This document shows, in pieces, positions 674-23,393 of a stretch of DNA of 64,000 nucleotides. Source of the DNA: a virus. Location: positions 89,953-153,952 of the IMG/VR virus record IMGVR_UViG_3300041964_000083. One strand, given 5' to 3'. Within the stretch, counting starts at the first letter, position 1. The number at the start of each line of letters is the position of its first letter. A model generated the notes under the pieces. It saw only the letters and a list, made by a program, of their open reading frames with translations, had not been told where the DNA came from and ran no database searches. The translations under genes and the position numbers were made by a program.

Positions 674-1063
674 TCAATTTTTGAACCCGTACACGTAATA
701 TTCGTAACCGTTAGATAAGTTGCATCCACCCATAACGCAAATAAGTTTCAACTTGGGGTTATCAAAATACGCTCTCAAAAACGCTTCTGCGTATCGGGCT
801 GTTCTTGGTGATGCGCCTGAATCCTTTGCTTTCTCGCTTGCCGCTTCTGCTTTCGTCCTATCCCATTGCCAGATGCGATCGCTATACTCCCATGTCAAAC
901 CATCTTCTTGATGACCATAAATAACTTGAGGCTTTTTCCAGATTTTTTGCTGATAACTTGGGTACTGAAGGCGTTGATCTGGGTCTAATGTTGGAATAAT
1001 TGCTGGTAGCTGATATTCTTTGGCAATGCCATGCGCCATTTCAAACCATTCTTCGTCCATCAT
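674..1063 (-). CDS. Hypothetical phage protein
   Basis: 129-aa ORF in minus-strand operon downstream of dnaN. Confidence 0.6.
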   Translation of the reverse strand: MMDEEWFEMAHGIAKEYQLPAIIPTLDPDQRLQYPSYQQKIWKKPQVIYGHQEDGLTWEYSDRIWQWDRTKAEAASEKAKDSGASPRTARYAEAFLRAYFDNPKLKLICVMGGCNLSNGYEYYVYGFKN

Positions 1064-1132
1064 CGCTTTATCCTTGCAATTTGTTGAGTAGACGCAAGTC
1101 CTAATAATGTACGGTGCGATCGCGTCTCCCCT

Positions 1133-2290
1133 TTAGTCTCTAATCTGTACGGGCATATCAGGTAAGTCATCTTCAACTCACCTAGGGGTACGAGTATGAC
1201 CGGAGTATCAGCGGTATTAATCAACATCTGAATCTCTGTAGTCGCAAGCGTCTTTAAGCCATCAATTAAGTATTTAACATTGAAGGCTATAAGTAAGTCA
1301 TCACCTGATACCTGAATAGGCATTGACTCTTGTCCACTACCAACATCTTGAGCATCAACCGATAAAGTAAGCTGCTGGTTAATGCTGTCAATGCTGAACT
1401 TAACCGTATTGTTTTTCTGGTCAGCTAGTACGCCGATGCGCTCCACTGCACCAAGTAACTGCCGTCGATCAATTGTGACTTGCCGCTGGAACTGAACTGG
1501 AATCAACTGCCGATAGGCTGGGTATGTTCCTTCTAGTGTGCGACTCGTTAAGCGCTGCTCTCCCTCCTGAAAGACAAGCTGACCTTGCTCAAAATGAAGC
1601 ATAACCGTATCTACTGGTTGCTTGGTGGCAATCATCCGTTCAAGCTCTTTTAGCGCTCTAGTGGGCACGGTGACTTGAAATGGCTCAACACTTTCTTGAT
1701 TGTCTTCGCTCTGATTTTTTGTTTCTACAACGGCAAGGCGATGCCCATCTGTGGCAGCAAACTCTAAGCCATCTTGCTGAACAGTTAAGTGAACACCAGT
1801 TAGTACCTGTTTGGTTTCATCGGGACTAGTGGCAAACAGCGTGCTACCCAACCCTTGCTTTAGCGCTTCAACGGGGTAGGCTAATTGCCGTCTCTGATTG
1901 CACCTGTGGAAGTGCTGGGAATTCATCAGCACTCATCCCGCGCATTTGATAGCGCCCAGATGCTGAAGTTAGCGTGACGATATGGCTACCTTCAGCATCG
2001 CCTTCTCCTGATTTCTCAGATAACGTGATTTCCCCTTCAGATAGACGAGAAACAATATCACTAAGTAGTTTTGCCGGAATGGTTAGTTTTCCGCTCGTTT
2101 CTACCGTAGCGGCAAAACTGGTCTGAATGCCAAGACTCAGATCAAATGCGGTAAGCGTCACCTTCTGTGCTTCGGCATCAGCCACGAGCAGCACATTACC
2201 CAATATTGGGTGGGTAGGACGAGAGGGAACCGCTCGACTTACTAGAGAGAGGTTTGTGTTGAGTTCGCTTTGGATGCAGGTTAGTTTCAT
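1133..2290 (-). CDS. dnaN: DNA polymerase III beta sliding clamp (frameshifted near 1875 and 1160)
   Basis: MKLTC..SRAVPSRPTHPILGNVLL, AATDGHRLA, EGTYPAYRQLIP, IAFNVKYLIDGL; restoring the indels gives the usual MPVQIRD* end. Confidence 0.93.
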
Positions 2291-2325
2291 GGTTTTGTCC
2301 AATGTTGGTTGTTGTGTGCGATCGC

Positions 2326-3800: not shown

Positions 3801-4705
3801 ATGGAAATCATACGTCGCGTTGACAACAACGTCGAGTTTTACACAGTAACTGCTACCGGAAAATCTGGAATGAGTCAAAGTGGTTTATCAATTCTTTCTG
3901 GAGTTACCCGCCAAGCTATTATCAAAATCGAAAAGACCCTTGTAACCGAAGCACCATCTAAAACGCTGGAAAGGTTTGTGGGTAAGGATTTTACCCTTGT
4001 AACCGAAAATGCAATGATTGATGGTAAACCAACCGGAAACCTCAATGTTTACGCTTCGCCGTTTTGCGGAGCAGTGATTCGTCACTATGCATACAAAGGT
4101 AACGATACGGCACAATATAGCCTTGAACAGTTCTCTGATATGGGGATAGAGAAGTGGATTCAAGAGATTACTGGATGGACTAAACCCAATCAACCGTCTC
4201 AAGCATCAATGGTTGGGTACTGGGCAGAGCGGCAGCGGCTATTCATCCAGAAGACTACAATCCCTAGTGGGTGGTTCTGTGTCTTTGAGGAATTGGCTAA
4301 GTTGATGTGGCAGCTTGAGAACTTGGGTATGTTATCCCCGACTACAGTCCAGTAACCAACAAACGGATTATGCCCGATATATCGATTGGTAAAATATTCT
4401 GCAAATATATGCGGAAGAATGGCTACGCTGTTGACTCTACTGTTCGCAGCTACCCGCATTATTATCCCGGATGGGCGTTACCCGTAAACGCTAACATTTA
4501 CCCCAATGCTTGGTTAGAAGTGTTTCGAGCTTGGTTTGATGAGCAGTGGAAGCCGCAACGGTTGGTTAAGTATTTAGGAAAGCGCGACCCCGATAGTATG
4601 CCTTCAATCTGCAAATTGTTAGGTTTACCTGAAGCGCCAGTGCAACTTGAACTACTTACTGTTAAAAATGGCGAGATTCTAGTACTCAAAGATTGCAACA
4701 GCTAA
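3801..4705 (+). CDS. KilA/antirepressor-like protein with BstA-like C-terminal domain (frameshift near 4325)
   Basis: Joined frames read IPSGWFCVFEELA..GYVIPDYSPVTNKRIMPDISIG..YPHYYP..IYP..FRAWF..KYL. Confidence 0.6.
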
Positions 4706-4769: not shown

Positions 4770-5300
4770 ATGTCAACCTACACAGAACTCCGACAAGAAC
4801 TAGATCGCATTGAGAAGTATATTCAAGACGCGATCGCGCAATTAGTCAACGCTAAAGAACCAAAGGACAAATTGCGAGAAGAATTAAATCGTGTGATGGG
4901 CGAACAAATCAGAGTGCGAGTTGAGCTATCCAGTTTGCTAGAGCGTGAAGCAAAGGAAATTGCTGCATCATCCGACCTTGACGATATTAAATTCTTGTAC
5001 CGGGGGAGACGATATTCGGCAAGTGGTTGGTGGCACGTCTACTACGAGAAGTGCCAAGTCATCGAACGTAAGCCCAATTATCTCACTGTGGTGTCTCAAG
5101 ATATGGATATCCCAGGCTTTTATAAAGGTGGAAAGTTTCGGGTTAAGCGTGATGAGCTTCAGTCTGAGGCAAAGCCTACCATAGCCGACATGGAGAATTC
5201 TTTTACATCGAACCCCTTAGCGACAGTTCACCCCTCCCCGGTAGTGCGGTCATTGGCTCAAACCTTACGGCTACTCCAGAGCAAGGCGCAATGGTGCTAG
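4770..5300 (+). CDS. Hypothetical protein, coiled-coil N-terminus (3' end possibly frameshifted)
   Basis: ORF track; bracketed by palindromes at 4721 and 5321. Confidence 0.55.
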   Translation: MSTYTELRQELDRIEKYIQDAIAQLVNAKEPKDKLREELNRVMGEQIRVRVELSSLLEREAKEIAASSDLDDIKFLYRGRRYSASGWWHVYYEKCQVIERKPNYLTVVSQDMDIPGFYKGGKFRVKRDELQSEAKPTIADMENSFTSNPLATVHPSPVVRSLAQTLRLLQSKAQWC

Positions 5301-5452
5301 GTACACCCCATCAATTACGTTGACAACGAATAGTTGTCATTTGAAAGCCCACCCTCAGCGATAGGGTGGTTTTTGTTTGGAGATGGTGCGATCGCGCAAT
5401 ATTAAATAGTTGGTGCTGCTTATTCCAGAATGATTGCTGTGTCTAAGCTTCG

Positions 5453-5761
5453 ATGGAACCGTTACACCTACTCCTCAAATCAGAGACGGTTCAAGCTCCA
5501 AATCTAGGTAGTGTATTAATTGTATGCGATCATTCTAATATGGCTGGAATTTGCTCAAAACACCAACACCACGAGGTTGGATGCCCGCTTTGTGAGGCGT
5601 CACCAACAGATTTGTTCCCTGATTGGCACGAGAAGAAAGCTGCTGCTATACTGGCTGGAACTCAGGTGTGTGCGTATTGTGGTTTTGAATCATACAAAAC
5701 AACTTCATCTTGCCCAAAATGTCGGGCGCATTTTCCTGAAGATAAAAGTTTGCTGAATTAG
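5453..5761 (+). CDS. Multi-CxxC zinc-ribbon protein
   Basis: CPLC, CAYC, CPKC motifs. Confidence 0.55.
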   Translation: MEPLHLLLKSETVQAPNLGSVLIVCDHSNMAGICSKHQHHEVGCPLCEASPTDLFPDWHEKKAAAILAGTQVCAYCGFESYKTTSSCPKCRAHFPEDKSLLN

Positions 5762-6546
5762 ATTTGGTGTGATCGCGTATCAATCCACTCCGGCGACACA
5801 TCCGCAGATTCCTCAGTATCTAAGCAAACTCCGCCAAAGATGTTGTAGGAAATACCATTTTCCCAGTACACAGCAACGTGTTTGGGGTCTACTTCTGGTT
5901 TGCCAACGCTGTCAGTCTTGCGACGGAATCGGGTTACCCCTTCAAAAACAGCGTTGAAGAGCAGCCGGACGATCGCGCCTCTATGTTTAGGTAAATCGTG
6001 CAAATCACTATGCCAGCGCCAGCAGAAGAACTCTTCTAAGCTTTCGTAGAGTATCAGTGCCTTTACCATATCGAAGTTTTCAATGTCGGGTGCTGTGCCG
6101 CGCTTTTTCTCACCAGGGTTGAAACTCTGCTTTTGGTAGCGGAAAATCCCAAACACATCAGCAAGCATATCCCGCATTTTCCACATAGTTGTTCGTCCAG
6201 AGGCAGCACCCGTCCAATGCTCTTTGAGGTAAGTGCAGATGGCTTGCTGTGTGATGTTGAAGCACTCAACGCCTTGTCGTGCGATCGCAGTGAGTCTATT
6301 GGTTACGTGGTGGCGTGTACCTTTCTTCTTCAGGCTTAGGGTATCCATTGCGGCACGGTATAGGTAAGCGTTGAGTACGCCCATTGCCGTTAGCACCTGC
6401 TTCTTAGTCCAGTTGGCGACGATACCGAAGATGTCTTGTCGAATGCTATGGAGTTGCGATCGCGTCGGTAAGGTTAAGCCAAACCCTGTGCGAACACTTG
6501 TACTCTGTTGATTTGCGGGAAATTGCATTATACTTTCCATATTCAC
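5758..6546 (-). CDS. Putative winged-HTH DNA-binding / replication-initiator-like protein, paralog A
   Basis: Clear similarity to 13858..14793 (WTKKQVLTAMGVLNAYLYRAA vs WSKEKILTTMGLLNILIYRAA; YLKEHWTGAASGRTTMWK vs YLKTYWKGANTGRTTLWK; LPKHRGAI vs LPEHKGAI). Confidence 0.6.
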   Translation of the reverse strand: MNMESIMQFPANQQSTSVRTGFGLTLPTRSQLHSIRQDIFGIVANWTKKQVLTAMGVLNAYLYRAAMDTLSLKKKGTRHHVTNRLTAIARQGVECFNITQQAICTYLKEHWTGAASGRTTMWKMRDMLADVFGIFRYQKQSFNPGEKKRGTAPDIENFDMVKALILYESLEEFFCWRWHSDLHDLPKHRGAIVRLLFNAVFEGVTRFRRKTDSVGKPEVDPKHVAVYWENGISYNIFGGVCLDTEESADVSPEWIDTRSHQI

Positions 6547-6652
6547 GGATGGGAAACCGAGAATTTATTGAAAGCCGTCGAGGGGTAAGAATGCTCGGCG
6601 GCTTTCGCTATTGGTTGAAATTATCGCACAAAACTCCGTCGAAAACCAAAGA

Positions 6653-6788
6653 TGAACGCTTAAGCCTCTTTATTAATTTTGAGTGAAGATTTTCTTCTTT
6701 CCAACGAAGTTTTGTCTTTCTAGCAGGGTTTGTCTTGTTAAAAAAAATCAATTCAGACAAACTCCTCATCCCAAAGCTTAAGCGTTCA
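6653..6788. repeat. 13-bp inverted repeats 110 bp apart
   Basis: tgaacgcttaagc at 6653-6665 and gcttaagcgttca at 6776-6788. Confidence 0.85.
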
Positions 6789-6847
6789 CACCTTGTTAAA
6801 ATAAGCTTTCTGCAAAATTTGACATCGTTTCGTTGTCAGCATTAATT

Positions 6848-7057
6848 TTAATCGTCTGCCATCTCATATCCTTTCAAGCTTCTAACAATGCGATAAATAA
6901 CCCCACAATTTTCGTATTCAACATACTTGTTAGATAAGTTTTCAAGTATTGCCCACCCTAATCGCTCTGTTCCCATAGTCCAATTAGGATTACTGACAAC
7001 CGTCCACTGACTTTTATCAACCTGCCGACAAATTAAATATTGAATCGGTTTTTTCAT
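6848..7057 (-). CDS. Hypothetical protein
   Basis: 69-aa ORF. Confidence 0.5.
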   Translation of the reverse strand: MKKPIQYLICRQVDKSQWTVVSNPNWTMGTERLGWAILENLSNKYVEYENCGVIYRIVRSLKGYEMADD

Positions 7058-7089
7058 ATTTCGTCAAACTAAATCAGAAGCGATCGCGT

Positions 7090-7344
7090 CTAATCGTCTC
7101 TCAAATTTCCATTCTCTAGGGCACGCTCAACAAGTAAGTCGGCTGCCTCTAAAATACTTGTACCAGTTGCCCAGCAGGGGTTGGCATTCAAAGAGCACCA
7201 GTCGGTTAAAGCTATTGCTAGAGCTTCTTCTAGTTCACCGCTTCGTTCTAACTCTCCCTCAAATTGCACTGGGGTACTAACACAAGTACAAATTAACTCA
7301 ACACCCATATCTTTTAGTGTTATCAGCAATTCATCAGTGTCCAT
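7090..7344 (-). CDS. Hypothetical protein
   Basis: 84-aa ORF abutting recombinase stop. Confidence 0.55.
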   Translation of the reverse strand: MDTDELLITLKDMGVELICTCVSTPVQFEGELERSGELEEALAIALTDWCSLNANPCWATGTSILEAADLLVERALENGNLRDD

Positions 7345-8310
7345 CTAAATTAATCCTGAAACAATTTCCGACATCTCTCCCTGAGCATTCTTCCGATTGT
7401 CATCATAGATCAGTAAGGTGTCAGACTTACTATGGCGAGAGAGCTTCTGCACCCGCCTCACGTCTCCATTCGTCGCATCCAGTGCCGCTGTTAAGGTCGA
7501 GTGCCGGATGCGGTGAGGTGAGAATATCTTTTTAATACCAGCTTGAGTCGCAATTTCTCGAACAATCCGATACACACCATCACCCGTGAGAGGATGCCCG
7601 TAGTGGGCATTATTGAGTGCGATAAATAACGGGTCGCCTTCCTCCACCTCGCCTCGGCAATCCAACCATTCCTGAATTGCCACTACGGTTGTAGGTGGCA
7701 ATTCAACCCGCTCCACCTGAGTCCCCCGACCTTTTCCTAAAATACTGAGCGTTCGTTTTCTCGCATCAAAATCCCCAACCTTTACCAGCGCCTCACTGCG
7801 CCGCAGAGCATTGGACCAGAATAATCGAAGCAGTGCATAATCTCGCTTCCCTTTCAACGTTGCGCGATCGCACACTTCAAGCATCGCCTTAAATTCATCA
7901 ACGCTCACCCCAGAGGTATCCCGATACGTCCGGCATCGTTCACCCTTAATTTCCTCAAGGGTAAATTTACATTTATCAAGTTTACGTGCATAAGCCGTCA
8001 ACGACTTAATCGCTGCTAGCCGTCGATTAACCGTCGCCTCTTTCAACCCCTGCGCCAACAACTGAGCTTTATACTTCAGCACCACCTTAATCGCATCTGC
8101 CCGCGCCAACCCCAAAAACTGTCCAACAGCTTCTGGGGTTGGTTTGGTTTTAGTCAAGAACTCGAAGAAGTACCCCAAGTCTTTCTCATATGCACGACGG
8201 GTGTTACGCGATCGCTTATCAGCCAGCAAGTCACGAATTAAGTCATCATCTTCAATGTGTTCAGCAAGCCAAGATGGTTGCTGAGTTGCGAGGTTACTCA
8301 CGCTCAACAC
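7345..8310 (-). CDS. Tyrosine recombinase (XerC/XerD-like, cyanobacterial plasmid/phage type)
   Basis: SAM-like N-terminus (NTRRAYEKDL, ATVNRRLAAIKSL); catalytic R (LRRSE), K (GKG), HRIRH, SRH, IYDD. Confidence 0.92.
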   Translation of the reverse strand: MLSVSNLATQQPSWLAEHIEDDDLIRDLLADKRSRNTRRAYEKDLGYFFEFLTKTKPTPEAVGQFLGLARADAIKVVLKYKAQLLAQGLKEATVNRRLAAIKSLTAYARKLDKCKFTLEEIKGERCRTYRDTSGVSVDEFKAMLEVCDRATLKGKRDYALLRLFWSNALRRSEALVKVGDFDARKRTLSILGKGRGTQVERVELPPTTVVAIQEWLDCRGEVEEGDPLFIALNNAHYGHPLTGDGVYRIVREIATQAGIKKIFSPHRIRHSTLTAALDATNGDVRRVQKLSRHSKSDTLLIYDDNRKNAQGEMSEIVSGLI

Positions 8311-8686
8311 CTGGTGTCAATGAGTATGAGTATTGTTCACTTGATAATGGTTCTGGATCTAGATAGATTTCAACACTATCTTTATCCATATCCTCTCCTA
8401 GTGTTAATGCCCAATCATTACCCAACGCGGCTACTTCAACGTTAATCCGCAATACATTAAATTCAGAAAAATAAGAAAGTAACCCTTTGTAAATCTTTGA
8501 ACTACCATCGCGCCATGTTCGCTTCATGAGAATGGGTGTGTTAGCAGGGAGCGATCGCGCTTCGATAAAACTAAGCGATTGTTGAGTTATGCGGTTACTC
8601 AGCAATACATCGCTGTCAAGGGTATGTATAGTACACACACCCTTTTCATCATGAATTAGCGATTCAAGCTGTTCTTGGGGCTGCAT
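8294..8686 (-). CDS. Hypothetical protein
   Basis: 130-aa ORF upstream of recombinase. Confidence 0.55.
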   Translation of the reverse strand: MQPQEQLESLIHDEKGVCTIHTLDSDVLLSNRITQQSLSFIEARSLPANTPILMKRTWRDGSSKIYKGLLSYFSEFNVLRINVEVAALGNDWALTLGEDMDKDSVEIYLDPEPLSSEQYSYSLTPGVERE

Positions 8687-8803
8687 AAGAGCTTTTAGGC
8701 TATATAAATATCTGACTAGTATACCCTCAACTCATGATAATGAGCGTTTACAAGAGTTAGGTAGGGTTGGGTAGAATTTAAGAGTAGCGTTACGCGATCG
8801 CAC

Positions 8804-9052
8804 ATGAGCAAATGGTGGCTATTATCAGACGAAGACTTTTGCAGCATTGCAAAGAATCTTACCCAAGCAATTGAAGAATGCTGCGATGCCGATAAGAAAA
8901 GGTTGCTAGAAGATACGCGGCATACATTGGAAACGGGACTGCACGTTACGGATGCCGTGCCGAGTGACTTCAAGAACAAAGAGCATCGATCAGCACCAGA
9001 GTACCCACCAGCAACACCAAAGCACCTTCGCACAAACAGTCGTGAATTATGA
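8804..9052 (+). CDS. Hypothetical protein
   Basis: ORF with HIP1-AC-ATG start context; ATGA overlap with next gene. Confidence 0.55.
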   Translation: MSKWWLLSDEDFCSIAKNLTQAIEECCDADKKRLLEDTRHTLETGLHVTDAVPSDFKNKEHRSAPEYPPATPKHLRTNSREL

Positions 9053-9471
9053 GTAATCTACAGCAGTATTTTGAAGAACTCCTTTCATCATTGTTGACTC
9101 AAGAAGCCCATTTTCACAAACGCTTTGCCAATCCAAAAGCAACTGATATCCTCAACAGCAAATATACACTAGCAAGATTTTGTACCTACCTCAGAAACTT
9201 GCAAGAATTAGAACCAGCGCAAGCCGCAAAATCACTCGTTGATAAAATAAATTGTTCCCCTCAGTACTGGTATACAAGAGAGCAAGATGGTGCATTATTG
9301 CGGAAGGTTGAAACGCTTGAACCAATGATAGCTTGTGCAATGAGAGACGCGATCACGCAAGTTGATTGGGTAGAGTTGTGGAACTCGCTACAACCACACA
9401 TTGAACCATTTCTGATTAGGTATGAGTATGAAGGATTAGTAATTAGCAAAATACAAAATAATCGCACATGA
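9049..9471 (+). CDS. Hypothetical protein
   Basis: 140-aa ORF, translationally coupled. Confidence 0.6.
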   Translation: MSNLQQYFEELLSSLLTQEAHFHKRFANPKATDILNSKYTLARFCTYLRNLQELEPAQAAKSLVDKINCSPQYWYTREQDGALLRKVETLEPMIACAMRDAITQVDWVELWNSLQPHIEPFLIRYEYEGLVISKIQNNRT

Positions 9472-9716
9472 CCTTATCAACAAGCTGCCCTCGCTGCTAT
9501 GGAGAGTCAACGCTATTTCACAAAAGCCAGTACAAGGGCGACATCTTCAAGTGCAAATCTTGTTTGATTCCTCATCCAACAAAAGAGGAAAAGATACCGC
9601 TGTTGTGGTTTTGGGAGAGCGATCGCTTATGGGAAGGATTAGATCAACCGGAAGGTGAAAATAAGCCGGAACTTGTCAAGGTAATCTTAGGAACCGAGCC
9701 AGAGAAAATTGTTTGA
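9468..9716 (+). CDS. Zinc-ribbon protein
   Basis: CPRC...CKSC. Confidence 0.6.
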   Translation: MTLSTSCPRCYGESTLFHKSQYKGDIFKCKSCLIPHPTKEEKIPLLWFWESDRLWEGLDQPEGENKPELVKVILGTEPEKIV

Positions 9717-9741
9717 CATCTAATCGTTGTCAGTTAAAAAT

Positions 9742-10104
9742 TTAGATTGCGATCGCGTATCCTTGTTCAGCTTGTGCAGCAAGTTCTTTGAGGCGTTCCC
9801 AGCAATAAGGGTCACGATTTATTGGTTTAATTTCAAATTTGGGAAATAGCTGATTAATCTGGTTCTCAGTTATGGATTCAGGTAACGCCATAAGAATTCG
9901 GGTAACTGTTGCCAAGAGAATAAGTGCAAATTCTCTATCCGCACCTGCACAATAATCAAGCGTCACCCAATCTCTACCAACTAATCCTACCCTAACTCGA
10001 ACTCCATACATAACTGGAAGAAAACCAATTTCCCAAATCTGGTTTTCAGACACCCAACGACCTGCGGGGAAGTTTTGGTTTGATTCTACTTTGGTGAAGT
10101 TCAT
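9742..10104 (-). CDS. Hypothetical phage protein
   Basis: 120-aa ORF. Confidence 0.6.
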   Translation of the reverse strand: MNFTKVESNQNFPAGRWVSENQIWEIGFLPVMYGVRVRVGLVGRDWVTLDYCAGADREFALILLATVTRILMALPESITENQINQLFPKFEIKPINRDPYCWERLKELAAQAEQGYAIAI

Positions 10105-10109
10105 TTTGC

Positions 10110-10592
10110 TTATGCAACCTCATCATCCAACACCCAATACTTAAAGGTTACACCCAATGCTGGTGTAGGCTTTACCGCAATACCAACAGCTAGCAAACTC
10201 GCTACACAAATTGCCAGTGTAGGTGTATCAGCCGTAGCATCACAAAACCCCATGTGACAGTGCCAAGCACGGATAGGGTGTTTAAGCCATCCTTTTTCAA
10301 GCGTAAATTCATGATTTGGGTACATCTTTTCTGCTACAGCCCAAGCCAAAGCCATAGAGCGACTTGGATTCCAAGATGTACCACGCAATCCAATACTATC
10401 TACTTGATAGAGCGCCCAACCATTACATTCTTTTGGCTCGAATATCTCGTAGATTAGGATTTCCCCTTCTTCGGGAACGGTTTCATCCCAATCGATTACT
10501 CGCCAACCCATCACCTTCTCGGCAACTAATCGATCTAAAGCGTTGTAAGAGTCAACTGACAACGTTTCGATGTCATTACGGTTTCTTCTCAT
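10110..10592 (-). CDS. Phage ABA-sandwich (BC1872-like) domain protein
   Basis: LDRLVAEKVMGW...WNPSRSMALAWAVAEKM...ADTPTLAICVASL pattern. Confidence 0.7.
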   Translation of the reverse strand: MRRNRNDIETLSVDSYNALDRLVAEKVMGWRVIDWDETVPEEGEILIYEIFEPKECNGWALYQVDSIGLRGTSWNPSRSMALAWAVAEKMYPNHEFTLEKGWLKHPIRAWHCHMGFCDATADTPTLAICVASLLAVGIAVKPTPALGVTFKYWVLDDEVA

Positions 10593-11038
10593 GATTTGCC
10601 TTCAATGCGTCGTTGTTCTTGCTCTATCATGCTTAGAAATTTCTCTCGAACTTCCCATGCTCGCTGGAGTTTCGGAACATCAGCTGAATTTGCTTCTTTA
10701 GCTTGGGATAGTGCGATCGCGTATGCATGACGTTCTAGATAAATCTGGTGCAGCGATATCTCCGTAGAGATGATCGCAATTGGTAACTTTTTCAGGTCAC
10801 TTGTCATGTACACAAATGGCTGACCCTTCACCTCGACATAACAATCACCCAATGGGTTAACCAGCATAACGATGCCGCGCTCTCCGGTTGGTAACTCCGC
10901 GCAGCTACCTTGACTGATTTTTTGTTCTTTCTCAACTTTGACCAGCTTTTCGAGTTTTACGGGTTCGATGCGGTTTTCTACTTCGGTGTTGGGAACCAAA
11001 TCCGGAAATAGAGATGGTTGGATTGGTTGGTTGTTCAT
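10589..11038 (-). CDS. Hypothetical protein with QPSLF motif
   Basis: 149-aa ORF, coupled to neighbours. Confidence 0.6.
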   Translation of the reverse strand: MNNQPIQPSLFPDLVPNTEVENRIEPVKLEKLVKVEKEQKISQGSCAELPTGERGIVMLVNPLGDCYVEVKGQPFVYMTSDLKKLPIAIISTEISLHQIYLERHAYAIALSQAKEANSADVPKLQRAWEVREKFLSMIEQEQRRIEGKS

Positions 11039-11595
11039 ACGCGATCGCCTCCTCTACGAGTTTCCCTTAACTGCTGAAACTCTTCAATTGTCGATTCAAC
11101 ATCAAACAGACTATCAGCAGGTTTGCCACTTGACTCTTTAACCTTCTCAAAAAAGTCTTTTAGAAATTCATCGCTTTCCATTGTTTCTGCCGCCCTTAAG
11201 ATATCTAGCGCCTGCCCTCGCCATGCCGTAAAACGACTAGGATTCTCCTCCCTAAACTTCCTAAATTCTAAGAGTAGCGCACCAGCAATTTCCAGCTCCA
11301 CGCCTATAACACGAGTCATCCATTCAATAAGTAGGCTATCAGTTTCAGCTGCAATCGCGCACTGCATTATCCCTAGGGCAAACTCGAAAGCTTCGGTGGG
11401 TGTGAATTCTGTCCTGTTTTTGTCCCAAGCCACATCAACCATTGGCTTTTTGTCGCGACTATTTACCCGTGAGTGAACATAAATTTCACCAGCACTGTAT
11501 TCAGTCAATACCCCAATTTTCTTTTTCTCAGATGGAGGTAAGCGCTTGAGTTCCGCAAACGTTGTTTTCCTGGCGGTTTTACCAAATCCTTTCAT
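11035..11595 (-). CDS. Hypothetical phage protein
   Basis: 186-aa ORF starting MKGFG. Confidence 0.65.
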   Translation of the reverse strand: MKGFGKTARKTTFAELKRLPPSEKKKIGVLTEYSAGEIYVHSRVNSRDKKPMVDVAWDKNRTEFTPTEAFEFALGIMQCAIAAETDSLLIEWMTRVIGVELEIAGALLLEFRKFREENPSRFTAWRGQALDILRAAETMESDEFLKDFFEKVKESSGKPADSLFDVESTIEEFQQLRETRRGGDRV

Positions 11596-12788
11596 CAGTT
11601 ATCTATAATCTCCAATCCTGTCTCTCTTGCAACTTGCTGGGTAAATGATTCCCAGTTCTCACCGCCATACTTTAAACGGGTGCGTTGAACGCTACTGATA
11701 GCATTATCAATCGCTTCAACGACTAAATCATCCCAAGGCGTATCGAGGTTCGTTGTAGATGCGCCCGTACCAAATAGCGCATCGTCACCGCAGTCATAAG
11801 AATTCTCGCCCTTTCCTGGCATGGGAATCCCACCCACAATTTCAAGCCCAACATCTTTTCGGGTTCGCTTGAGGAAAGGGAAACGCGATCGCGTCCATGT
11901 TCTGATTTCTAGCTTGGCATTGGCTTTGTAGATTCGGTTATCGAAATGAATATCAACAGGTCGTTCGCCCTCAACTTGTGTAGTGCAACGCTCCCGTCCA
12001 AGTAGTAAATCGGTTGGATGAATAACGATTCGTCGCCAATCATTATTCCTCCAGCAGTCAACTTCCGCAAATAGATAAATCCAAATAATGCCGTGATGAA
12101 TTCTAAAGCTGAGTTCTCGTTCGTCTTCAGATAACCAGCTTACCCAATGGTGAGGCAGTTTTTCAATGGATAGAAAAACACTAAATAGAAGTAACCCAAC
12201 ATGGAAAGTTACTACATTCTCAATCCCGCCCACATTAATACTGAGAGCTAAACTATCCCATTGTGGAATAGTCCAGCTGCCATGCAATGCCCACACATCT
12301 TGCGCAGGTTCATTTTTGGAATTGAGTTTCCAATAAGTGAGGGTTCGACTTCCTGCAATCCATGCTCTACCTCTATCATCTCGATTATTGTCTACAGACC
12401 AGAAAGTGTAATGTAGCTTCCATTTGAGAAACAAATGCCAATTAATTCGCGCTAAACCGTTAACTAACCCGATGATGGGGTTATCTAATAGTCGATAAAA
12501 TTCATCCGCGCAAGGCTCAATTAGCGTCAACATATCCATGTAGTTGTCAGCTAGCCAGTTTCTTTCAGTGTCACTAGCAGCACGCCTAAACAACGTTGAT
12601 ATGTATTCACCCAACTTAGCTAAATTAAAATCTGGGAAACTTAGTATTTCCTGAACAAATACGCGATCGCACCCGTTCTCTACCATGTAAGCCTCTATCC
12701 ATTTGAGTTCGCGCCACTCGTCTCCATGCACGTTAGCAATTAGTTCCCAGTCCCGCATTAGCATAAGTGCCACTCTTCCTGATAACAA
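11595..12788 (-). CDS. Hypothetical Trp-rich phage protein (start uncertain)
   Basis: 397-aa ORF containing GKGENSYDCGDDA. Confidence 0.65.
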   Translation of the reverse strand: MLSGRVALMLMRDWELIANVHGDEWRELKWIEAYMVENGCDRVFVQEILSFPDFNLAKLGEYISTLFRRAASDTERNWLADNYMDMLTLIEPCADEFYRLLDNPIIGLVNGLARINWHLFLKWKLHYTFWSVDNNRDDRGRAWIAGSRTLTYWKLNSKNEPAQDVWALHGSWTIPQWDSLALSINVGGIENVVTFHVGLLLFSVFLSIEKLPHHWVSWLSEDERELSFRIHHGIIWIYLFAEVDCWRNNDWRRIVIHPTDLLLGRERCTTQVEGERPVDIHFDNRIYKANAKLEIRTWTRSRFPFLKRTRKDVGLEIVGGIPMPGKGENSYDCGDDALFGTGASTTNLDTPWDDLVVEAIDNAISSVQRTRLKYGGENWESFTQQVARETGLEIIDN

Positions 12789-12995
12789 TAGTGATAGAAC
12801 CTTTAGGTAAGCCTCACACTAAATCTACCTCAATATGCCTTGGTTTGTTATTGTTCAGTCTGCTACAGAAAAACCAGACCATCTGACTGTTTGGACTCGA
12901 TTTCCCGTAGGAACAGAACGATACGCTTATGTGGGTAGCGTATCTCACGAAGATTTTGCAGAATTAAAGGAACAACACCGAGTAGTTGTCGCAAA

Positions 12996-13268
12996 GTGGC
13001 TAAAAAAGTACGTACTGCAACCAAAACAGTAAAAGTGAAGGTAAAGCGTAAACCAATTCCTCCGGGTATTCGTTATGACGCACTCTCTAAAGCTAATTTT
13101 CGCTGCCAGTCTTGCGGTGTGCTATCTCGAAATGCACGGCTGGAAATCGATCACAAAATACCCGTGGCGAAAGGTGGGACTAATGCGATCGCGAACCTAC
13201 AAGTTTTATGCGTTGCCTGTAATCGCGGGAAAGGTGCAAAGCTCAAGCGCAAGAGAAAACAGATATGA
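12996..13268 (+). CDS. HNH endonuclease
   Basis: CQSCG...EIDHKIPVAKGGTNAIANLQVLCVACNRGK. Confidence 0.92.
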   Translation: MAKKVRTATKTVKVKVKRKPIPPGIRYDALSKANFRCQSCGVLSRNARLEIDHKIPVAKGGTNAIANLQVLCVACNRGKGAKLKRKRKQI

Positions 13269-13597
13269 AAAAGAATAAGGGTTTTGGTACTCCACAGGAG
13301 AAATGTCAACCTTTGCTACTTTTGGTAGGTGATGGCGTTTCACCAGATGTTTTGGCAAAAGATCCAAACATTCAAAAAACTTACCCTGGTATCACCGCAA
13401 AGGAATTCATATGGATAAAAGCAACCAGAATGGAAGAGTTTGGGTCTTTTCCTAAAACAATAGAATTACAAACTGACGACGGAAAGATTCAACGTATTTA
13501 CAAAATACCAAAAGACACAGCAACGCAACTCAAGAAAACAAGACGAGTTTATATCGAATCTGACATAAACTGGAGTAAGTTTGACGGCTTATCCTAG
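13265..13597 (+). CDS. Hypothetical protein
   Basis: 110-aa ORF with KGFG. Confidence 0.6.
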   Translation: MKKNKGFGTPQEKCQPLLLLVGDGVSPDVLAKDPNIQKTYPGITAKEFIWIKATRMEEFGSFPKTIELQTDDGKIQRIYKIPKDTATQLKKTRRVYIESDINWSKFDGLS

Positions 13598-13617
13598 AGC
13601 TACATTTGAATGTGCGA

Positions 13618-13851
13618 TTATTCTTGCGATCGCGTGTTAACCACAGCGGCTTGACCCCTCTCCCCTATCTGCAAACCAAGTCGAGAGAGATAGTTATCGC
13701 CATAATCAACTCTCCATGCGTCCGATGGTGAAGTGGCTTCTACTTTGACAACTACTCCGGTATCCCCGTCTGGGTGTCTAATCGTGTCGCCTTCATGGAT
13801 TGGTTTTTCTGCGAAGTCACTCCACGGTGCTTTTTCAGGTTGTTTAGTCAT
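13618..13851 (-). CDS. Small YopX-like hypothetical protein
   Basis: DFAEKPIHEGDTI resembles the YopX D..GK.IYEGDI motif. Confidence 0.5.
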   Translation of the reverse strand: MTKQPEKAPWSDFAEKPIHEGDTIRHPDGDTGVVVKVEATSPSDAWRVDYGDNYLSRLGLQIGERGQAAVVNTRSQE

Positions 13852-13857
13852 GCGTTT

Positions 13858-14793
13858 TTAATATGGAAGTTCGTTCTCAGGGAACGGTGTGTCAACTTGA
13901 AGACTGGGTTCAGCTTCGTGTCGAGTGAATCGTTGTCGCCACAATTCATGAGCTTTCTTTGCGCTCATGACACACCCATCTTCACAAACAATTAAAACAG
14001 CTAATGGTAATCCTCCATCTTTTAAAATGTACTCGCAATCATGCTCAAAGGTAAAGTTACGGGGTTTTACGTACTGGTTAGACTCAACCTGTGATGCTCT
14101 ATCTAGTACTTCTTCGCGAGGGTCGGGCAGAGCAAGTTCTTTGCGACGGTAGCGAACAACGCCCGCAAAGAACTTGTTAAATACAAGAGAGATAATCGCA
14201 CCCTTATGCTCTGGTAATCCATCAAACCCATCCTTCTCTTCGCCGTAATGCTGACGCAGCAGATTCTCTAGGTGTTCGTAGAGCAGAAGTGCTTTGGCAA
14301 AATTAAAGTTTTGAATAACTGTTGCTTGCCCCCATTGACCCGCTTTGAACTTACGCTCTTCACAGGTGAATAAGTTAAAGGTATCCGAAAGCATTTTCTT
14401 GGTTTTCCAAAGCGTCGTGCGTCCGGTGTTGGCTCCTTTCCAATAAGTTTTGAGGTATAGTGCAACCGTTTGCATCCCACACCGGAACTTTCTAACACCA
14501 CGGGATAGAGCTTGTCCAATATTCTCGACAACTCGGTGGAAGCCTGATTGTTTATAGGTTTTGGTTCTAAATGCTTTCTTGACTTGCACCAACACCTTCA
14601 TCTCTCTTGCAGCGCGATAGATGAGGATGTTGAGAAGTCCCATCGTGGTTAAAATCTTTTCTTTACTCCATACCCTCGTGGCTGTGGCGATGTTGCCAGA
14701 GGTAATGGCAGTAAATTCAGTGACGCAATCGGTTATCTGCTGGGCAGTTAGGGGTTTTGGAGCGAAGCCTTTGGGAAATGTAGGGATAACCAT
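13858..14793 (-). CDS. Putative winged-HTH DNA-binding / replication-initiator-like protein, paralog B
   Basis: Paralog of 5758..6546 with the same upstream architecture. Confidence 0.6.
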   Translation of the reverse strand: MVIPTFPKGFAPKPLTAQQITDCVTEFTAITSGNIATATRVWSKEKILTTMGLLNILIYRAAREMKVLVQVKKAFRTKTYKQSGFHRVVENIGQALSRGVRKFRCGMQTVALYLKTYWKGANTGRTTLWKTKKMLSDTFNLFTCEERKFKAGQWGQATVIQNFNFAKALLLYEHLENLLRQHYGEEKDGFDGLPEHKGAIISLVFNKFFAGVVRYRRKELALPDPREEVLDRASQVESNQYVKPRNFTFEHDCEYILKDGGLPLAVLIVCEDGCVMSAKKAHELWRQRFTRHEAEPSLQVDTPFPENELPY

Positions 14794-14889
14794 GTTACGA
14801 TGGGGATGCTTTTTTGATAAATTGGTAAGCCGCTCGTTGTTGAAGCAACTGGCGGCTATTTTTTTGTATTATGCCACGGAAAGCTAGTT

Positions 14890-15048
14890 AAACGCACCGT
14901 GAACGTATAAGCATTTTTGTTAATCTTGTAAGTCTATTTGTTAACCCAAAGTGGTAGGAAGGGATCAATGGACTAGAGCGAACAAGCAAAAGTGAAAAAT
15001 AAAACTCTTTAACTTTAAGACTGATGCTTATACGTTCACGGTGCGTTT
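14890..15048. repeat. Perfect 25-bp inverted repeats 109 bp apart
   Basis: aaacgcaccgtgaacgtataagcat at 14890-14914 and atgcttatacgttcacggtgcgttt at 15024-15048. Confidence 0.92.
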
Positions 15049-15161
15049 TGTGTAAAGATATGTAACAAGCTGACAACGAATCGTTGTCAGCTTGGGGCGT
15101 GGTTGTAGCTTAAAATGAATAGTGAGATCGCACTATTCGAGTTAAAGCAAATAGCCCAACT

Positions 15162-15893
15162 ATGTCAATCACTAATCAACCTGTTGCATTCCCAAAGGCA
15201 ATATGTGAAAACGAAATGATAGCTTGGTTGCTGGATCAGTTTGTATGTGAAGCCGACATAGACAAAACTCCTTTTTCTTTAATGGCATGGGCTGATTTAA
15301 TGAAACAAGGACTTGTTGATGTTTTTAAAACTCCAGCAGGTTATAAAGACCCGTCAGGAGATCTTGTTTTGCGAGGTATAGTTAGAATCAAAACTGACGC
15401 ATCGCCTGAGTCTTTAACTATCTTTGGAGAAAGAGCAAAGGTTGATTTTTTCGACAATATTAGTGTTTCTGAAATTGCGCCATCCCCCGCTGTTTTAGAT
15501 AACCCAACAATCAATCAAGGACGGGGTGCTGTAATTAAATGGAAATATTTATCTTTCCGCTCTGAGCATGAGGTCGTAATCGCGTCTTCTTTTGATGCCC
15601 TCGGCGTGATGTTCTTTCCCAATGCTGCCGTAAGATTGACTGAGAATGGCAAACGAGTCACCAAAGAAGTAGATTTTCTTGTTTGCAAAAATGGACGTTG
15701 GGGAATTCTAGAAGTTGACGGCTCCCAGCATAGAGAAAGTAGAGCAGAAGATATGATGCGAGATGATGCTTTTACTGATGCAGGCGTTTGGTTTATTCGT
15801 CGCTACCCCGCAAGTGTTTGTATACAAAAATCAGAATGGGTAGTACAAGACTTCATCTCACGTCTAGACGCTTACTACTTGCGATTGAAATAA
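15162..15893 (+). CDS. PD-(D/E)xK nuclease, DUF559/Vsr-like C-terminal domain
   Basis: EVDFLV...GILEVDGSQH...D..RD. Confidence 0.7.
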   Translation: MSITNQPVAFPKAICENEMIAWLLDQFVCEADIDKTPFSLMAWADLMKQGLVDVFKTPAGYKDPSGDLVLRGIVRIKTDASPESLTIFGERAKVDFFDNISVSEIAPSPAVLDNPTINQGRGAVIKWKYLSFRSEHEVVIASSFDALGVMFFPNAAVRLTENGKRVTKEVDFLVCKNGRWGILEVDGSQHRESRAEDMMRDDAFTDAGVWFIRRYPASVCIQKSEWVVQDFISRLDAYYLRLK

Positions 15894-15946
15894 CTTAATT
15901 ATTATTAAAGCGGGGATTCTATGATTTTCGGCTGTTCGTTCCATAT

Positions 15947-16669
15947 TCACCATCCCTCCGGTAACTCCACACCGATCGCGCACAAACTTCTGGTAATCCT
16001 TTCCTTATTCTCCTCGAACAGTGGGTGGTCGGGTACATCGCCACCAATAGAGGCTAGCGGGATACTGAGGGTTTCTTTGTTCTCGTCTTCCTTATCGGGT
16101 GGCGTAAGGCGATGATTAGCTTGGACGAGCATCTTGGCTAGGTCTTGAGTACCGAACTGCTGAAATAGGTCTTTGGCACGAAGCTTGAATATCAGGAGAG
16201 TGTCTACCCAAATATCAAGCTCACTATCCCCCGTGGTGTGTTTGGGTGGAGTGTCGTCCCCTGTTGAGTAGGTGTACCCCATAAGTTGGGATAGCTTTGA
16301 TAAGCCCACAACGAGTTCGTTTGTGACGGGGTGAGTAACGGGGTCGGTGCAGATGAAGAATTTGTGGCGGCAAAGGGAGGTGATGCGATCGCAGTTCACT
16401 ACCCACCCACTACTTACTTGCTTTAAATTCTCGCTCAATTCTTGTACCCCTGCAAGGGGGAGTTGATTGGCAATCTTCTGGTAGTAGCGCTTAAGAGTTT
16501 CGTAGATTTGGTACTCGACTACTTCGTTGTAGGGATAGATTTCATAGCCCTCAAGCTGGGTGAGGAGCGCTAGATGATATTGGCGGATGAGGGAAGAGTG
16601 CGCGATCGCAGGCGTCTTGATAAACGCAAAATCACCGTCGATAAAATCAATCTGCTCCCAGTTCGGCAT
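15947..16669 (-). CDS. Hypothetical protein, possible tail assembly chaperone
   Basis: 240-aa ORF at end of structural operon. Confidence 0.45.
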   Translation of the reverse strand: MPNWEQIDFIDGDFAFIKTPAIAHSSLIRQYHLALLTQLEGYEIYPYNEVVEYQIYETLKRYYQKIANQLPLAGVQELSENLKQVSSGWVVNCDRITSLCRHKFFICTDPVTHPVTNELVVGLSKLSQLMGYTYSTGDDTPPKHTTGDSELDIWVDTLLIFKLRAKDLFQQFGTQDLAKMLVQANHRLTPPDKEDENKETLSIPLASIGGDVPDHPLFEENKERITRSLCAIGVELPEGW

Positions 16670-20579: not shown

Positions 20580-20681
20580 TGTAGCCTTCTAGGTAAACAC
20601 TGTATGCGATCGCGTCTTGTCTGGAAAACTTACGCGATCGCACGTCCACTAACCCACAAGCTAATGGAGCAACTATCCATC

Positions 20682-21560
20682 ATGACACAAATTGAGCAAG
20701 TTGTTAAACAAATTCAATCAGAGTTCCGCGTAAACCCCAATGGGCAAGTATTTACCAGTATTCGCGGTGCAGCAAGGTTAGCCGATATTGATGAATCGTC
20801 AATTAGAACAGCTCTCCATAGTGCGGGACAAAAACCATCGCGTTTAGCTGAATTCCTTATCCAACAAGGATTTGAAAGTGCGGAGCTAATTTCGTGGGTA
20901 ACTACAAGGATACCCGATATTGCACTTGCGTTGATTCTTGAGTACTACGCTTACGAGTGCCAAGAACGCTATCGCTCAGAGCAAGCCAAGCTTTGTTGTC
21001 GCGCATTTAATTCCGTAGGTATCAGGGATTGGGTTAAAAAATCAATAGGGTGGGAGGTACAACTAGCAAGCGGGATAACCAAAACCGAAAGCCGTATAGA
21101 AGAAATACTGGCTCAAAACCAGCAAATGATGCAGCAAAGTCAGCAAATGATGATGGCAATCGCGATGATGTGTCAGCAGCAAGGAATCCAAATGGAATCA
21201 CTTGCATCACAGGTTTCTTCTGTTGATACCCGACTAACGCGCATCGAATCAGACCGCGATGATGCAATTGCAGAACTCGATGAAGCCGAACCCCCATCTG
21301 TTGAAGCAGAAGACCTAACCACCCGTGCCAAACTTAATCGCTTGGTTCGCGATTATAGTGCGGCTACCGCTATTCCGTTTAGCGAAGTGTGGAAGCGAGT
21401 ATATCGAGAATTCCGCGATCGATATCATGTTGATCTCAAGCGGCGGTCTAAAAATATCCAAGAAAGTGGCGGCAAAAAGCTAAGTTCTTTAGATGTTTGC
21501 GAACACCTCGGCATGATAGAACAGCTATACGCTGTAGCATTTGCGCTATTAAAAGCTTAA
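20682..21560 (+). CDS. Antirepressor-like protein (DNA-binding N-terminus, coiled coil, ORF6C-like C-terminus)
   Basis: SIRGAARLADID; RAKLNRLVRDYS..WKRVYREFRDRYHVDL; GGAG upstream of 20682. Confidence 0.7.
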   Translation: MTQIEQVVKQIQSEFRVNPNGQVFTSIRGAARLADIDESSIRTALHSAGQKPSRLAEFLIQQGFESAELISWVTTRIPDIALALILEYYAYECQERYRSEQAKLCCRAFNSVGIRDWVKKSIGWEVQLASGITKTESRIEEILAQNQQMMQQSQQMMMAIAMMCQQQGIQMESLASQVSSVDTRLTRIESDRDDAIAELDEAEPPSVEAEDLTTRAKLNRLVRDYSAATAIPFSEVWKRVYREFRDRYHVDLKRRSKNIQESGGKKLSSLDVCEHLGMIEQLYAVAFALLKA

Positions 21561-22252: not shown

Positions 22253-23393
22253 TAGCCAGTCTAAATGATTCGTGAAAGCGAATGCCGCGAATAAGTGATA
22301 AAGTAGAAAGTTATTTTAGGGAAATAATAATGATATCTGAGTCGAGAGAGAAAGAAATTAAGACTTTAACAGACTTCATCACTAGTAATCCAGACCCCAG
22401 AGAGTTGAAGAGAGCCTTGGCGATAAAATTAGCACTAGAAGGCTATGCTTATCGAGCTATTAAACAAAGTTTAGGAGTGTCTTATGGATTTATAAGTAAA
22501 TGGAAAACAAGTTTTGAAGCCTGGGGAATATCCGGAATTAAATTAGCTCATAAAGGGAGCCAAAGTTTCTTGACTGAAGAACAAATAGAACAAGTAATAA
22601 CTTGGCTATTTTCCCAAAATCATTGGGATATATCCGAATTAGAAGTTTATCTAATAGACCATTATGACGTGGTCTTTCAATCACCGCAGAGTTATTATGC
22701 GCTGCTGAAGAAAGCTCGGATAAGTTGGCAAAAAGCTCAACAAGTCAATCCTCGCCAAAACCCGGAATTGGTAAAAAAAAGAACTCAAGAACTCGCCAAT
22801 CTCCTGGAAAATAGACGCCAAGAGATAGAAGCGGGAAGCCTTGTCGTCTATCTTATAGACGAATGTCATCTGCTGTGGAATGATATTTGTGGTTACCTAT
22901 GGAATTTCATTAAAAATCCTCGAAAAGTTCCCCTGCTCAATCCTAAAGAAAGACAAACTTACTATGGAGCCTTAAATTTAATGTCTCCGGACTTTGTTCT
23001 ATCAGCTTATCAGGCTGGAAATGGGGAATGTACGGTAGATTTTGTCAAGAAATTACTGGAAAGAAATAAACGGGCGAAACTTTTGCTGATTTGGGATGGA
23101 GCCATCTATCATCGTGGTCAAGAAATGCAGGAATTTTTAGCTCAACACAATGATGGTTTATCTCCCGATGAATGGCGAATTACTTGTGAGTTATTTCCTG
23201 CCTATGCTCCCGAAGAAAATCCGGTTGAAGCCATTTGGTTACAATTAAAAAGTTTACTGAGAAGATTTTATAGATTTGGGAAGAATTTTAACATAGTTAA
23301 ACGTCTTTTCAAAATGTTTGCTGACCTAAAACTTTTCAATTTTCCTAATCTTGAAAGGTATCAGGCATTTTCACAATTCATTTAGACTAGCTA
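22253..23393 (+). mobile_element. IS630-family insertion sequence
   Basis: TIRs tagccagtctaaatga / tcatttagactagcta; TA duplication at 22251-52 and 23394-95. Confidence 0.92.
22282..23385 (+). CDS. tnp: IS630-family transposase
   Basis: HTH N-terminus; DDE triad in IDEC, IWDGAIYH, PEENPVEAIW. Confidence 0.95.
   Translation: MPRISDKVESYFREIIMISESREKEIKTLTDFITSNPDPRELKRALAIKLALEGYAYRAIKQSLGVSYGFISKWKTSFEAWGISGIKLAHKGSQSFLTEEQIEQVITWLFSQNHWDISELEVYLIDHYDVVFQSPQSYYALLKKARISWQKAQQVNPRQNPELVKKRTQELANLLENRRQEIEAGSLVVYLIDECHLLWNDICGYLWNFIKNPRKVPLLNPKERQTYYGALNLMSPDFVLSAYQAGNGECTVDFVKKLLERNKRAKLLLIWDGAIYHRGQEMQEFLAQHNDGLSPDEWRITCELFPAYAPEENPVEAIWLQLKSLLRRFYRFGKNFNIVKRLFKMFADLKLFNFPNLERYQAFSQFI

Follow-up and report, generated by a model that had tools for sequence, protein, structure and literature searches.

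Two genes of a phage, coding for diverged predicted winged-helix proteins, are each preceded by an inverted repeat with widely separated arms, and the gene together with this site constitutes a module that is conserved as a type among related loci, with the arms varying along with the protein. The DNA described here, referred to below as the window, comprises bases 89,953-153,952, i.e., the last 64 kb, of the 153,952-bp IMG/VR virus record IMGVR_UViG_3300041964_000083 (CheckV completeness 98%). The original prediction, made from the letters of the window, had postulated a protein-plus-cis-site unit, and the homologs bear this out, as they keep the order of repeat, promoter, and hairpin while the arms change with the protein. 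Each protein probably binds its own arms, since the arms follow the protein from lineage to lineage, consist of a variable part and an inner motif common to most lineages, and have no other counterparts in the genome.

Upstream of both genes the order of elements is the same: an inverted-repeat pair, a predicted extended -10 promoter, a GC hairpin, and then the gene (Table 1). Within the window there are exactly four occurrences of the repeat core, TGAACG(C/T)(T/A)TAAGC, located at 6653(+)/6776(-) and 14900(+)/15026(-), compared with a chance expectation of 0.5. The core is found nowhere else in the 153,952-bp genome, so that it is restricted to the regions upstream of the two paralogs. The whole genome contains six perfect inverted pairs of at least 12 bp placed 60-200 bp apart; only two of them carry the core, and of the remaining four no fewer than two are based on the HIP1-type sequence GCGATCGC. 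The arms of module 2 are complementary at 25 of 25 positions. The core-to-core gaps are 110 bp in module 1 and 113 bp in module 2 (123 and 126 bp from centre to centre), and, with GTG at 6546 taken as the start of gene 1, both modules have the same distance of 107 bp between proximal core and start codon. The spacers, with an A+T content of 67-68% compared with a genome average of 57%, exhibit no clear similarity to each other in a pairwise alignment. The small open reading frames (ORFs) within them, 6608-6769 and 14888-15076, show no relationship and were regarded as non-coding. Thus, the core pairs, the perfect 25-bp arms of module 2, the common 107-bp distance, the A+T-rich and dissimilar spacers, and the leader hairpins, which are present by both sequence and fold, are all as originally described. 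The two spacings of 110 and 109 bp given at that time, in contrast, resulted from a comparison of arms of unequal length. At 14908-14944, from within the proximal arm of module 2 onward, there are also two direct copies of TAAG-N-TTTGTTAA, 21 bp apart, which may be extra half-sites or may have arisen by chance.

Table 1. Positions of the two modules in the window, of the adjacent palindrome copies, and of the corresponding modules in phage CL131
Feature	Position	Strand	Remarks
Paralog 1 (P0001), 262 aa	5758-6546	(-)	ORF; winged-helix family member lacking the [LIV]-P-[FY] tip at its C terminus
GC-rich leader hairpin, paralog 1	6571-6605	(-)	by sequence and fold; between predicted promoter and start codon
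Predicted extended -10 TGCGATAAT, paralog 1	6620-6628	(-)	identical TGCGATAAT in orthologous locus L032
Gene-proximal arm, module 1	6653-6665		sequence TGAACGCTTAAGC
Spacer, module 1, 110 bp	6666-6775		68% A+T; sequence not conserved
Gene-distal arm, module 1	6776-6788		reverse complement of core
19-bp palindrome, neighbour of module 1	6820-6838		
Paralog 2 (P0002), 311 aa	13858-14793	(-)	winged-helix family member; ends with ...ENELPY
GC-rich leader hairpin, paralog 2	14828-14857	(-)	followed by a T-run on the opposite strand, terminator-like
Predicted extended -10 TGGCATAAT, paralog 2	14868-14876	(-)	same nonamer in L008 and L033
Gene-proximal arm, module 2, 25 nt	14890-14914		core at 14900-14912
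Spacer, module 2, 109 bp (113 bp core to core)	14915-15023		67% A+T
Gene-distal arm, module 2, 25 nt	15024-15048		perfect complement
19-bp palindrome, neighbour of module 2	15071-15089		
CL131 gp018 / gp052 repeat modules	L028 5641-5776 / L031 5242-5348		MG209611.1

The promoter-like element TG(G/C)(C/G)ATAAT is present in modules 1 and 2, as well as in the homologous loci L008 and L032, with TGGCATAAT found also in the short contig L033. The corresponding element is TGGCAAAAT in L007 and, as recognised by eye, TGCAATAAT in L013. At homologous loci it is placed regularly between the arm and the gene and is followed by a GC-rich hairpin. A simple promoter/terminator scanner applied to the upstream regions returned nothing useful. 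Relative to the predicted start site, the proximal core lies at about -39 to -51 in modules 1 and 2, and the arm centre lies at about -67 in L008, -108 in L007, and -85 in gp052 of phage CL131, described below, giving an overall range of about -40 to about -110.

The original prediction had also included in the module a 19-bp palindrome, TGACAWCG-N3-CGWTGTCA. Its placement was correct, as the copies start 32 and 33 bp past the distal cores (at 6820 and 15071), but its membership in the module was not, since the loose form TGACA-N9-TGTCA has 14 matches in the window (517-59575) and 27 dispersed over the genome. As many as 26 of these 27 fit the consensus half-sites, and most copies are intergenic or placed at gene ends. 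Because it is dispersed genome-wide, the palindrome borders the modules without belonging to them; its role may be that of an operator, a terminator, or an insulator acting throughout the phage. The repeat in L032 has a similar palindrome, TGACAAC…GTTGTCA, upstream of it (about 2238-2258). Loose contig ends at 6819 and 10555, considered as traces of a cassette replacement, were found to be cross-matches to palindrome copies at 44.5 and 94.6 kb of the genome.

The two ORFs are diverged paralogs, as had been claimed, with 39% identity over 186 aa (E 1e-40). Both proteins match phrog_34986, a family without an assigned function (P0001 at E 4e-15), and an exhaustive profile search recovered 112 family representatives at E<=0.001, mostly 250-300 aa long. 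Searches of P0001 and P0002 against Pfam and NCBIfam at E<=1 yielded only Phage_TreK for P0002, a sub-threshold (E 0.19) and unrelated match, whereas searches of PDB sequences with the proteins and with a 79-member profile gave nothing usable. No match was found by tblastn of P0002 against isolated phages and plasmids, and scans of metagenome contigs, as well as two of the three scans of viral contigs, provided little or nothing. The family is rare in cyanobacterial genomes (2 of 401 sampled), and all recovered gene contexts are phage-like or provirus-like. A phrog_34986-like family that was previously unannotated and has no Pfam entry is now defined together with its likely DNA target.

The layout upstream of the gene was examined statistically at 14 loci, each compared with 100 dinucleotide shuffles, with L032 and two genes of phage CL131 inspected separately. 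At six of these loci the gene is preceded by a long-range inverted repeat that surpasses all 100 shuffles, whereas the repeat is borderline at another four and absent at the last four; L032 and both CL131 loci also have such a repeat ahead of the gene. Orthologous loci contain related cores, TGTGAACGTA(C/T)AAGCAT in L008, GAACGTAGAAG in L007, and a perfect 21-mer, TTTTTGACGCTTAAGCTTTTT, in L032. Outer arm sequences that are unrelated, but occupy an equivalent position, are present in the distant members L009, L011, L010, L016, and L020, and at both CL131 genes, which are distant members as well. The inner motif AAGC(A) is shared by eight of the nine inverted repeats of the window and the metagenomic loci, with AAG only in L020 and a looser form in CL131, and it persists across proteins that are only ~20-25% identical. 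The distances are more variable. The gaps between arms range from 59 to 242 bp, with 69 bp in the module-1 ortholog compared to 110 bp in module 1 itself, and the proximal arm terminates 97-166 bp ahead of the start codon, except in L010, where this distance is 299 bp. The near base-exact geometry reported earlier is therefore a property of the phage described here and not of the family. Homologs in other phages do keep the repeat, promoter, and hairpin upstream of the gene, although the spacing varies and the palindrome lies outside the unit. A+T-rich spacers are found in modules 1 and 2, L010, L016, and L020, as well as, by inspection, at both CL131 loci. Four members with the C-terminal tip discussed below have no inverted repeat nearby, and these loci are compatible with a site located elsewhere in their genomes.

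A counterpart of this arrangement in an isolated and cultivable phage is found in Aphanizomenon phage vB_AphaS-CL131 (MG209611.1), where gp018 and gp052, annotated as hypothetical, are family paralogs with 42% identity. Like the phage in the window, CL131 has two paralogs with repeat-promoter-hairpin modules, each gene being preceded by its own 24-27-nt inverted repeat, a sigma70-type promoter TTGACA-N18-TAGAAT, and a leader hairpin. The arm sequence is different, the arms are imperfect (81-88% complementary), and the gaps are 82 and 59 bp. In CL131 the modules are separated by 40 kb and positioned at both ends of the structural gene block, whereas they are 8 kb apart in the window. In the neighbourhood of gp018 an HU gene lies three genes downstream, and a FinO-like gene is found near gp052. 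Most replication genes are reportedly missing from this phage, which presumably makes use of proteins recruited from the host (PMC6293099); the names gp018 and gp052 do not occur in the text of that paper. CL131-type phages thus appear to depend on host replication functions.

The presence of two copies is not limited to these two phages, since a Symploca metagenome bin also contains two family members. In a quick tree with SH-aLRT branch support, the CL131 pair are sisters (88), as are those of the Symploca pair (99), whereas both proteins of the window fall within one 8-member clade (90), in which P0001 groups with P0006 and P0008. Because the copies within a phage or bin are close relatives in the tree, the gene looks, as judged from these sequences, to have been duplicated more than once.

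The structure of P0002 was modelled with AlphaFold2 using 79 sequences, with pLDDT of 80 overall and above 90 for residues 40-180. The model starts with N-terminal helices, followed by a canonical winged helix (residues ~84-163), a long helix, and a conserved L-P-x-H-x-G loop, whereas the C-terminal part is poorly modelled. The winged-helix topology, H-B-H-H-B-B, is modelled with confidence, and the closest solved structures are the winged-helix DNA-binding domains of CRP/FNR, PadR, MarR, and RTP (Z 5.5-7.1), in agreement with the winged helix-turn-helix assignment made originally. The VIA Z scores of 6.0-6.4 to the Cdc6/ORC structures 1fnn (6.4) and 1w5s are level with those of many other winged helices. 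Most of the shapes nearest to the model in the ESM Atlas correspond to the lid and winged-helix domain (WHD) of Cdc6/ORC, with TM scores of 0.28-0.33 by query and at most 0.56 by match. Foldseek found no match in the PDB at E<=0.001, and a fold search of BFVD identified one real relative, A0A2H4PAW0. Neighbours in the feature space of a language model include RepL and IncFII RepA, a lead only and not evidence of membership in these families.

A further feature of the family is found at the extreme C terminus. The end [LIVMA]P[FYW] is present in 44 of 115 members, including P0002 (…ENELPY), and in 26 of these 44 it is directly preceded by an acidic residue, as in DIPF, DLPY, ELPF, and EVPY; gp018 and gp052 of CL131 end with EVPF or EVPY. 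The C-terminal tip of the single-stranded DNA-binding protein (SSB), D-D-[IL]-P-F, is a hub for SSB-interacting proteins, and the long-form SSBs of two cyanobacterial genomes end with DDIPF. By sequence, the family tip [DE]-[LIV]-P-[FY] resembles this DDIPF tail, with an acidic residue and [LIV]-P-[FY] at the very end of P0002 and of other family members. It differs in being attached to a winged-helix protein, read as binding double-stranded DNA, with no OB fold, in the frequent replacement of Phe by Tyr, and in its absence from P0001. The latter may therefore be a specialised or regulatory copy. A predicted complex of the 80 C-terminal residues of P0002 with a fragment of the phage beta-clamp gave no verdict and no support, and is not counted either way.

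On this basis, the module is tentatively interpreted as a phage-specific winged-helix DNA-binding protein with its cognate bipartite site, the protein serving as an origin organiser, attached to the two arms and attracting the replication proteins of the host. The winged-helix protein would bind the two inverted arms, with the variable outer part of the arm (~10 nt) setting the specificity and the AAGC(A) motif forming the inner part. The flexible C terminus, with its [DE]-[LIV]-P-[FY] end, could then bring to the site those host proteins that dock to the SSB tail, the candidates being primase, PriA, and the clamp-loader chi subunit, and the outcome would be an origin or a site of replisome assembly. 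Expression of the gene would be driven by a dedicated promoter of the extended -10 type, located between the proximal arm and the gene, and would yield an mRNA that starts with a stabilising hairpin. Of the two functions put forward originally, a replication initiator with its origin and a looped autoregulatory operator, the lean is toward the first, owing to indirect indications, namely the SSB-like tip, the Cdc6/ORC-like nearest shapes, and the SF2 helicase gene that directly follows the family gene in L011. Further points in favour are the inverted sites around an often A+T-rich spacer, the apparent dependence of these phages on host replication functions, the failure to find a PF00436 SSB in the phage, the variable position of the arms with respect to the promoter, and the tip-bearing loci that have no repeat nearby. 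We can speculate further, with more doubt, that a replication organiser devoid of an ATPase clamps two arms around a meltable spacer and redirects the host SSB interactome by mimicking the SSB tail, and that this unit was duplicated independently in several cyanophage lineages, providing two initiation sites per genome.

Several observations weigh against such a role in replication. None of the 79 members matches Rep_3, RepA_N, IncFII_repA, Phage_P1_RepL, Phage_rep_O, or a DnaD-like domain at E<=5, and the direct repeats in either upstream region are two-copy repeats at chance level, with no iterons among them; an initiator of a known Rep family is thus not supported. An AAA+ ATPase domain has no Pfam match, and the model contains helical and winged-helix elements only, while the structural matches are to generic winged helices (Z<=7.1, TM<0.5 by query). 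The spacers of L009 and L011 contain just 51% and 45% A+T. The tip is missing in P0001 and in its orthologs P0006 and P0008. The two modules, 8 kb apart, are far from the DnaB helicase gene of the phage (at 13.8 kb of the genome), and a perfect 25-bp arm exceeds what is needed for a protein site. Finally, the cumulative GC skew turns only locally, with a minimum in the vicinity of module 2, and this turn, confounded as it is with the orientation of the genes, was disregarded.

The principal competing explanation, possible but less probable, is that the protein is an early transcription factor controlling its own operon, and possibly others, by looping the DNA between the arms or by acting from an upstream activating site. 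The repeat is found directly upstream of the gene's own predicted promoter, with the proximal core at about -39 to -51 in modules 1 and 2, the best matches among solved structures are the CRP/FNR, PadR, and MarR winged helices, the gaps of 59-242 bp fit the known range of regulatory loops, the gene is often the first in a run of small early-type ORFs, and the HU gene of CL131 is close by. However, the position of the arm with respect to the -10/-35 elements varies among L008, L007, and gp052 as given above, which fits an independent element better than an operator. Moreover, four loci have no repeat at their own promoter, the calculated centre-to-centre distances do not consistently correspond to whole helical turns, and the SSB-like tip would be left unexplained. 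The likeness to the looping repressors, in which GalR uses the operators OE and OI placed 113 bp apart, AraC uses O2 and I1, and LacI uses O1 and O3, includes two sites ~100 bp apart near a promoter, a bendable A+T-rich spacer, and, in CL131, a nearby HU gene. The differences are that the predicted promoter is outside the putative loop, that spacing and phase vary, and that the protein families are unrelated.

It is rather improbable that the repeat itself is the functional entity, a structure or a recombination substrate such as an invertible segment, a cruciform, a hairpin in single-stranded DNA, or an extended stem in RNA, as in an end-paired RNA or a processing site of the RNase III type. 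Arms that are perfectly complementary over 13-25 bp, with outer parts not conserved between relatives, present the pattern expected of selection for pairing or of arm-to-arm homogenisation, the region folds far better than shuffled sequences (z -8.5, -6.8, and -4.5), and a tyrosine recombinase gene is located upstream of module 1 and of L010. Nevertheless, no recombinase is found near module 2 or at nine other loci, the predicted conserved promoter is outside the repeat, between the proximal arm and the gene, and neither the sequence nor the length of the spacer is conserved, its internal small ORFs being unrelated. The persistence of AAGC(A) across very distant members points instead to recognition by a protein. 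An invertible segment and an end-paired non-coding RNA had both been proposed as alternatives, but no strand-change joint was detected at the arms in four metagenome runs, where only assembled contigs were covered, and Rfam gave no match at E<=1 for the window region 5000-16000. The resemblance to fimS-like invertons is also limited, since the predicted promoter is not between the repeats and most loci have no dedicated recombinase. An attP site was rejected, as most loci have no integrase and the recombinase in the window is XerC/D-like with a SAM-like N-terminal domain. Least probable by far is that the repeats are the ends of a non-autonomous element similar to a miniature inverted-repeat transposable element, inserted upstream of both genes, or that they resemble each other by chance. 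Terminal inverted repeats enclosing 136-159 bp of non-coding, A+T-rich DNA would suit such an element, but no more than two copies exist in the 154-kb genome and each is placed alike with respect to its paralog, the same layout with other arm sequences recurs in many unrelated phages, and no target-site duplication is evident in the flanks of the modules.

Comparison of the module, interpreted as an origin with its organiser, with known replication systems reveals both common and distinct features. In archaeal oriC, composed of origin recognition boxes (ORB) and the orc1/cdc6 gene, the initiator gene also adjoins the site and inverted elements flank an A+T-rich stretch, a likeness of architecture only, and that origin belongs to a cellular chromosome, whereas the module is found in a phage. 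Archaeal Orc1/Cdc6 contacts DNA via a winged helix, and the predicted shapes nearest to P0002 are the Cdc6 lid and WHD, but the family has no AAA+ ATPase and no detectable sequence homology to Orc1/Cdc6, and its scores are in the range of generic winged helices. In the RepA/RepE/pi, P1 RepL, and lambda O systems, a winged-helix protein is likewise encoded beside its cis site, with both changing together between relatives. Here, in contrast, Pfam and NCBIfam provide no match, iteron arrays are missing, a single winged helix replaces WH1-WH2, and the arms are inverted and placed 59-242 bp apart.

The genome that carries the two modules has a G+C content of 43% and 247 GCGATCGC (HIP1) sites, by which the phage is assigned to a HIP1-rich cyanobacterium, and its DNA was found in biocrust and soil metagenomes of several studies. 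No SSB (PF00436) was found in the phage. A sliding clamp (DNA polymerase III beta) gene is present in the window at 1060-1932(-); this ORF of 290 aa covers domains 2 and 3 only, and another ORF, 1868-2302(-), 144 aa, overlaps it upstream in a different frame and may hold domain 1, an arrangement that could be due to a frameshift, a split gene, or an assembly error. The XerC/D-like tyrosine recombinase (Phage_integrase and a SAM-like N-terminal domain) is encoded at 7345-8310(-), separated from the distal arm of module 1 by ~560 bp; a recombinase gene is also found directly upstream of the L010 repeat. The phage may be temperate. Module 2 is flanked by genes of an HNH endonuclease (12996-13268(+)) and of a DUF559, Vsr-like protein (15162-15893(+)), which may be homing-type genes. 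An IS630-like DDE_3 transposase with HTH domains is encoded within the phage genome at 22282-23385(+), and the products of 3801-4355(+) and 20604-21560(+) both match a PHROG annotated as BstA abortive-infection/replication inhibitor, the latter matching an anti-repressor PHROG as well. Metagenome contigs follow the window to position 8220 and then continue on the reverse strand of the genome at ~44.4 kb (about 44379), a junction suggestive of either a repeat common to both places or a variant with a rearrangement.

The module is a variant of a known theme, in which the gene of a DNA-binding protein adjoins the cognate site of that protein; this site may be an origin or an operator. Phages of filamentous cyanobacteria, whose hosts include biocrust and bloom-forming species, are poorly understood, and to our knowledge next to nothing has been established about how their replication originates and which early regulators they use. 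The family with its likely DNA target, the promoter-leader layout, and the SSB-like tail provide a concrete hypothesis for the takeover of the host replisome by CL131-like phages, one that is testable because CL131, with its two module copies, can be grown in culture. If the module is an origin, it would supply a replicon part for cyanobacterial genetics, and if it is a regulator, the family would offer a set of orthogonal protein-operator pairs.

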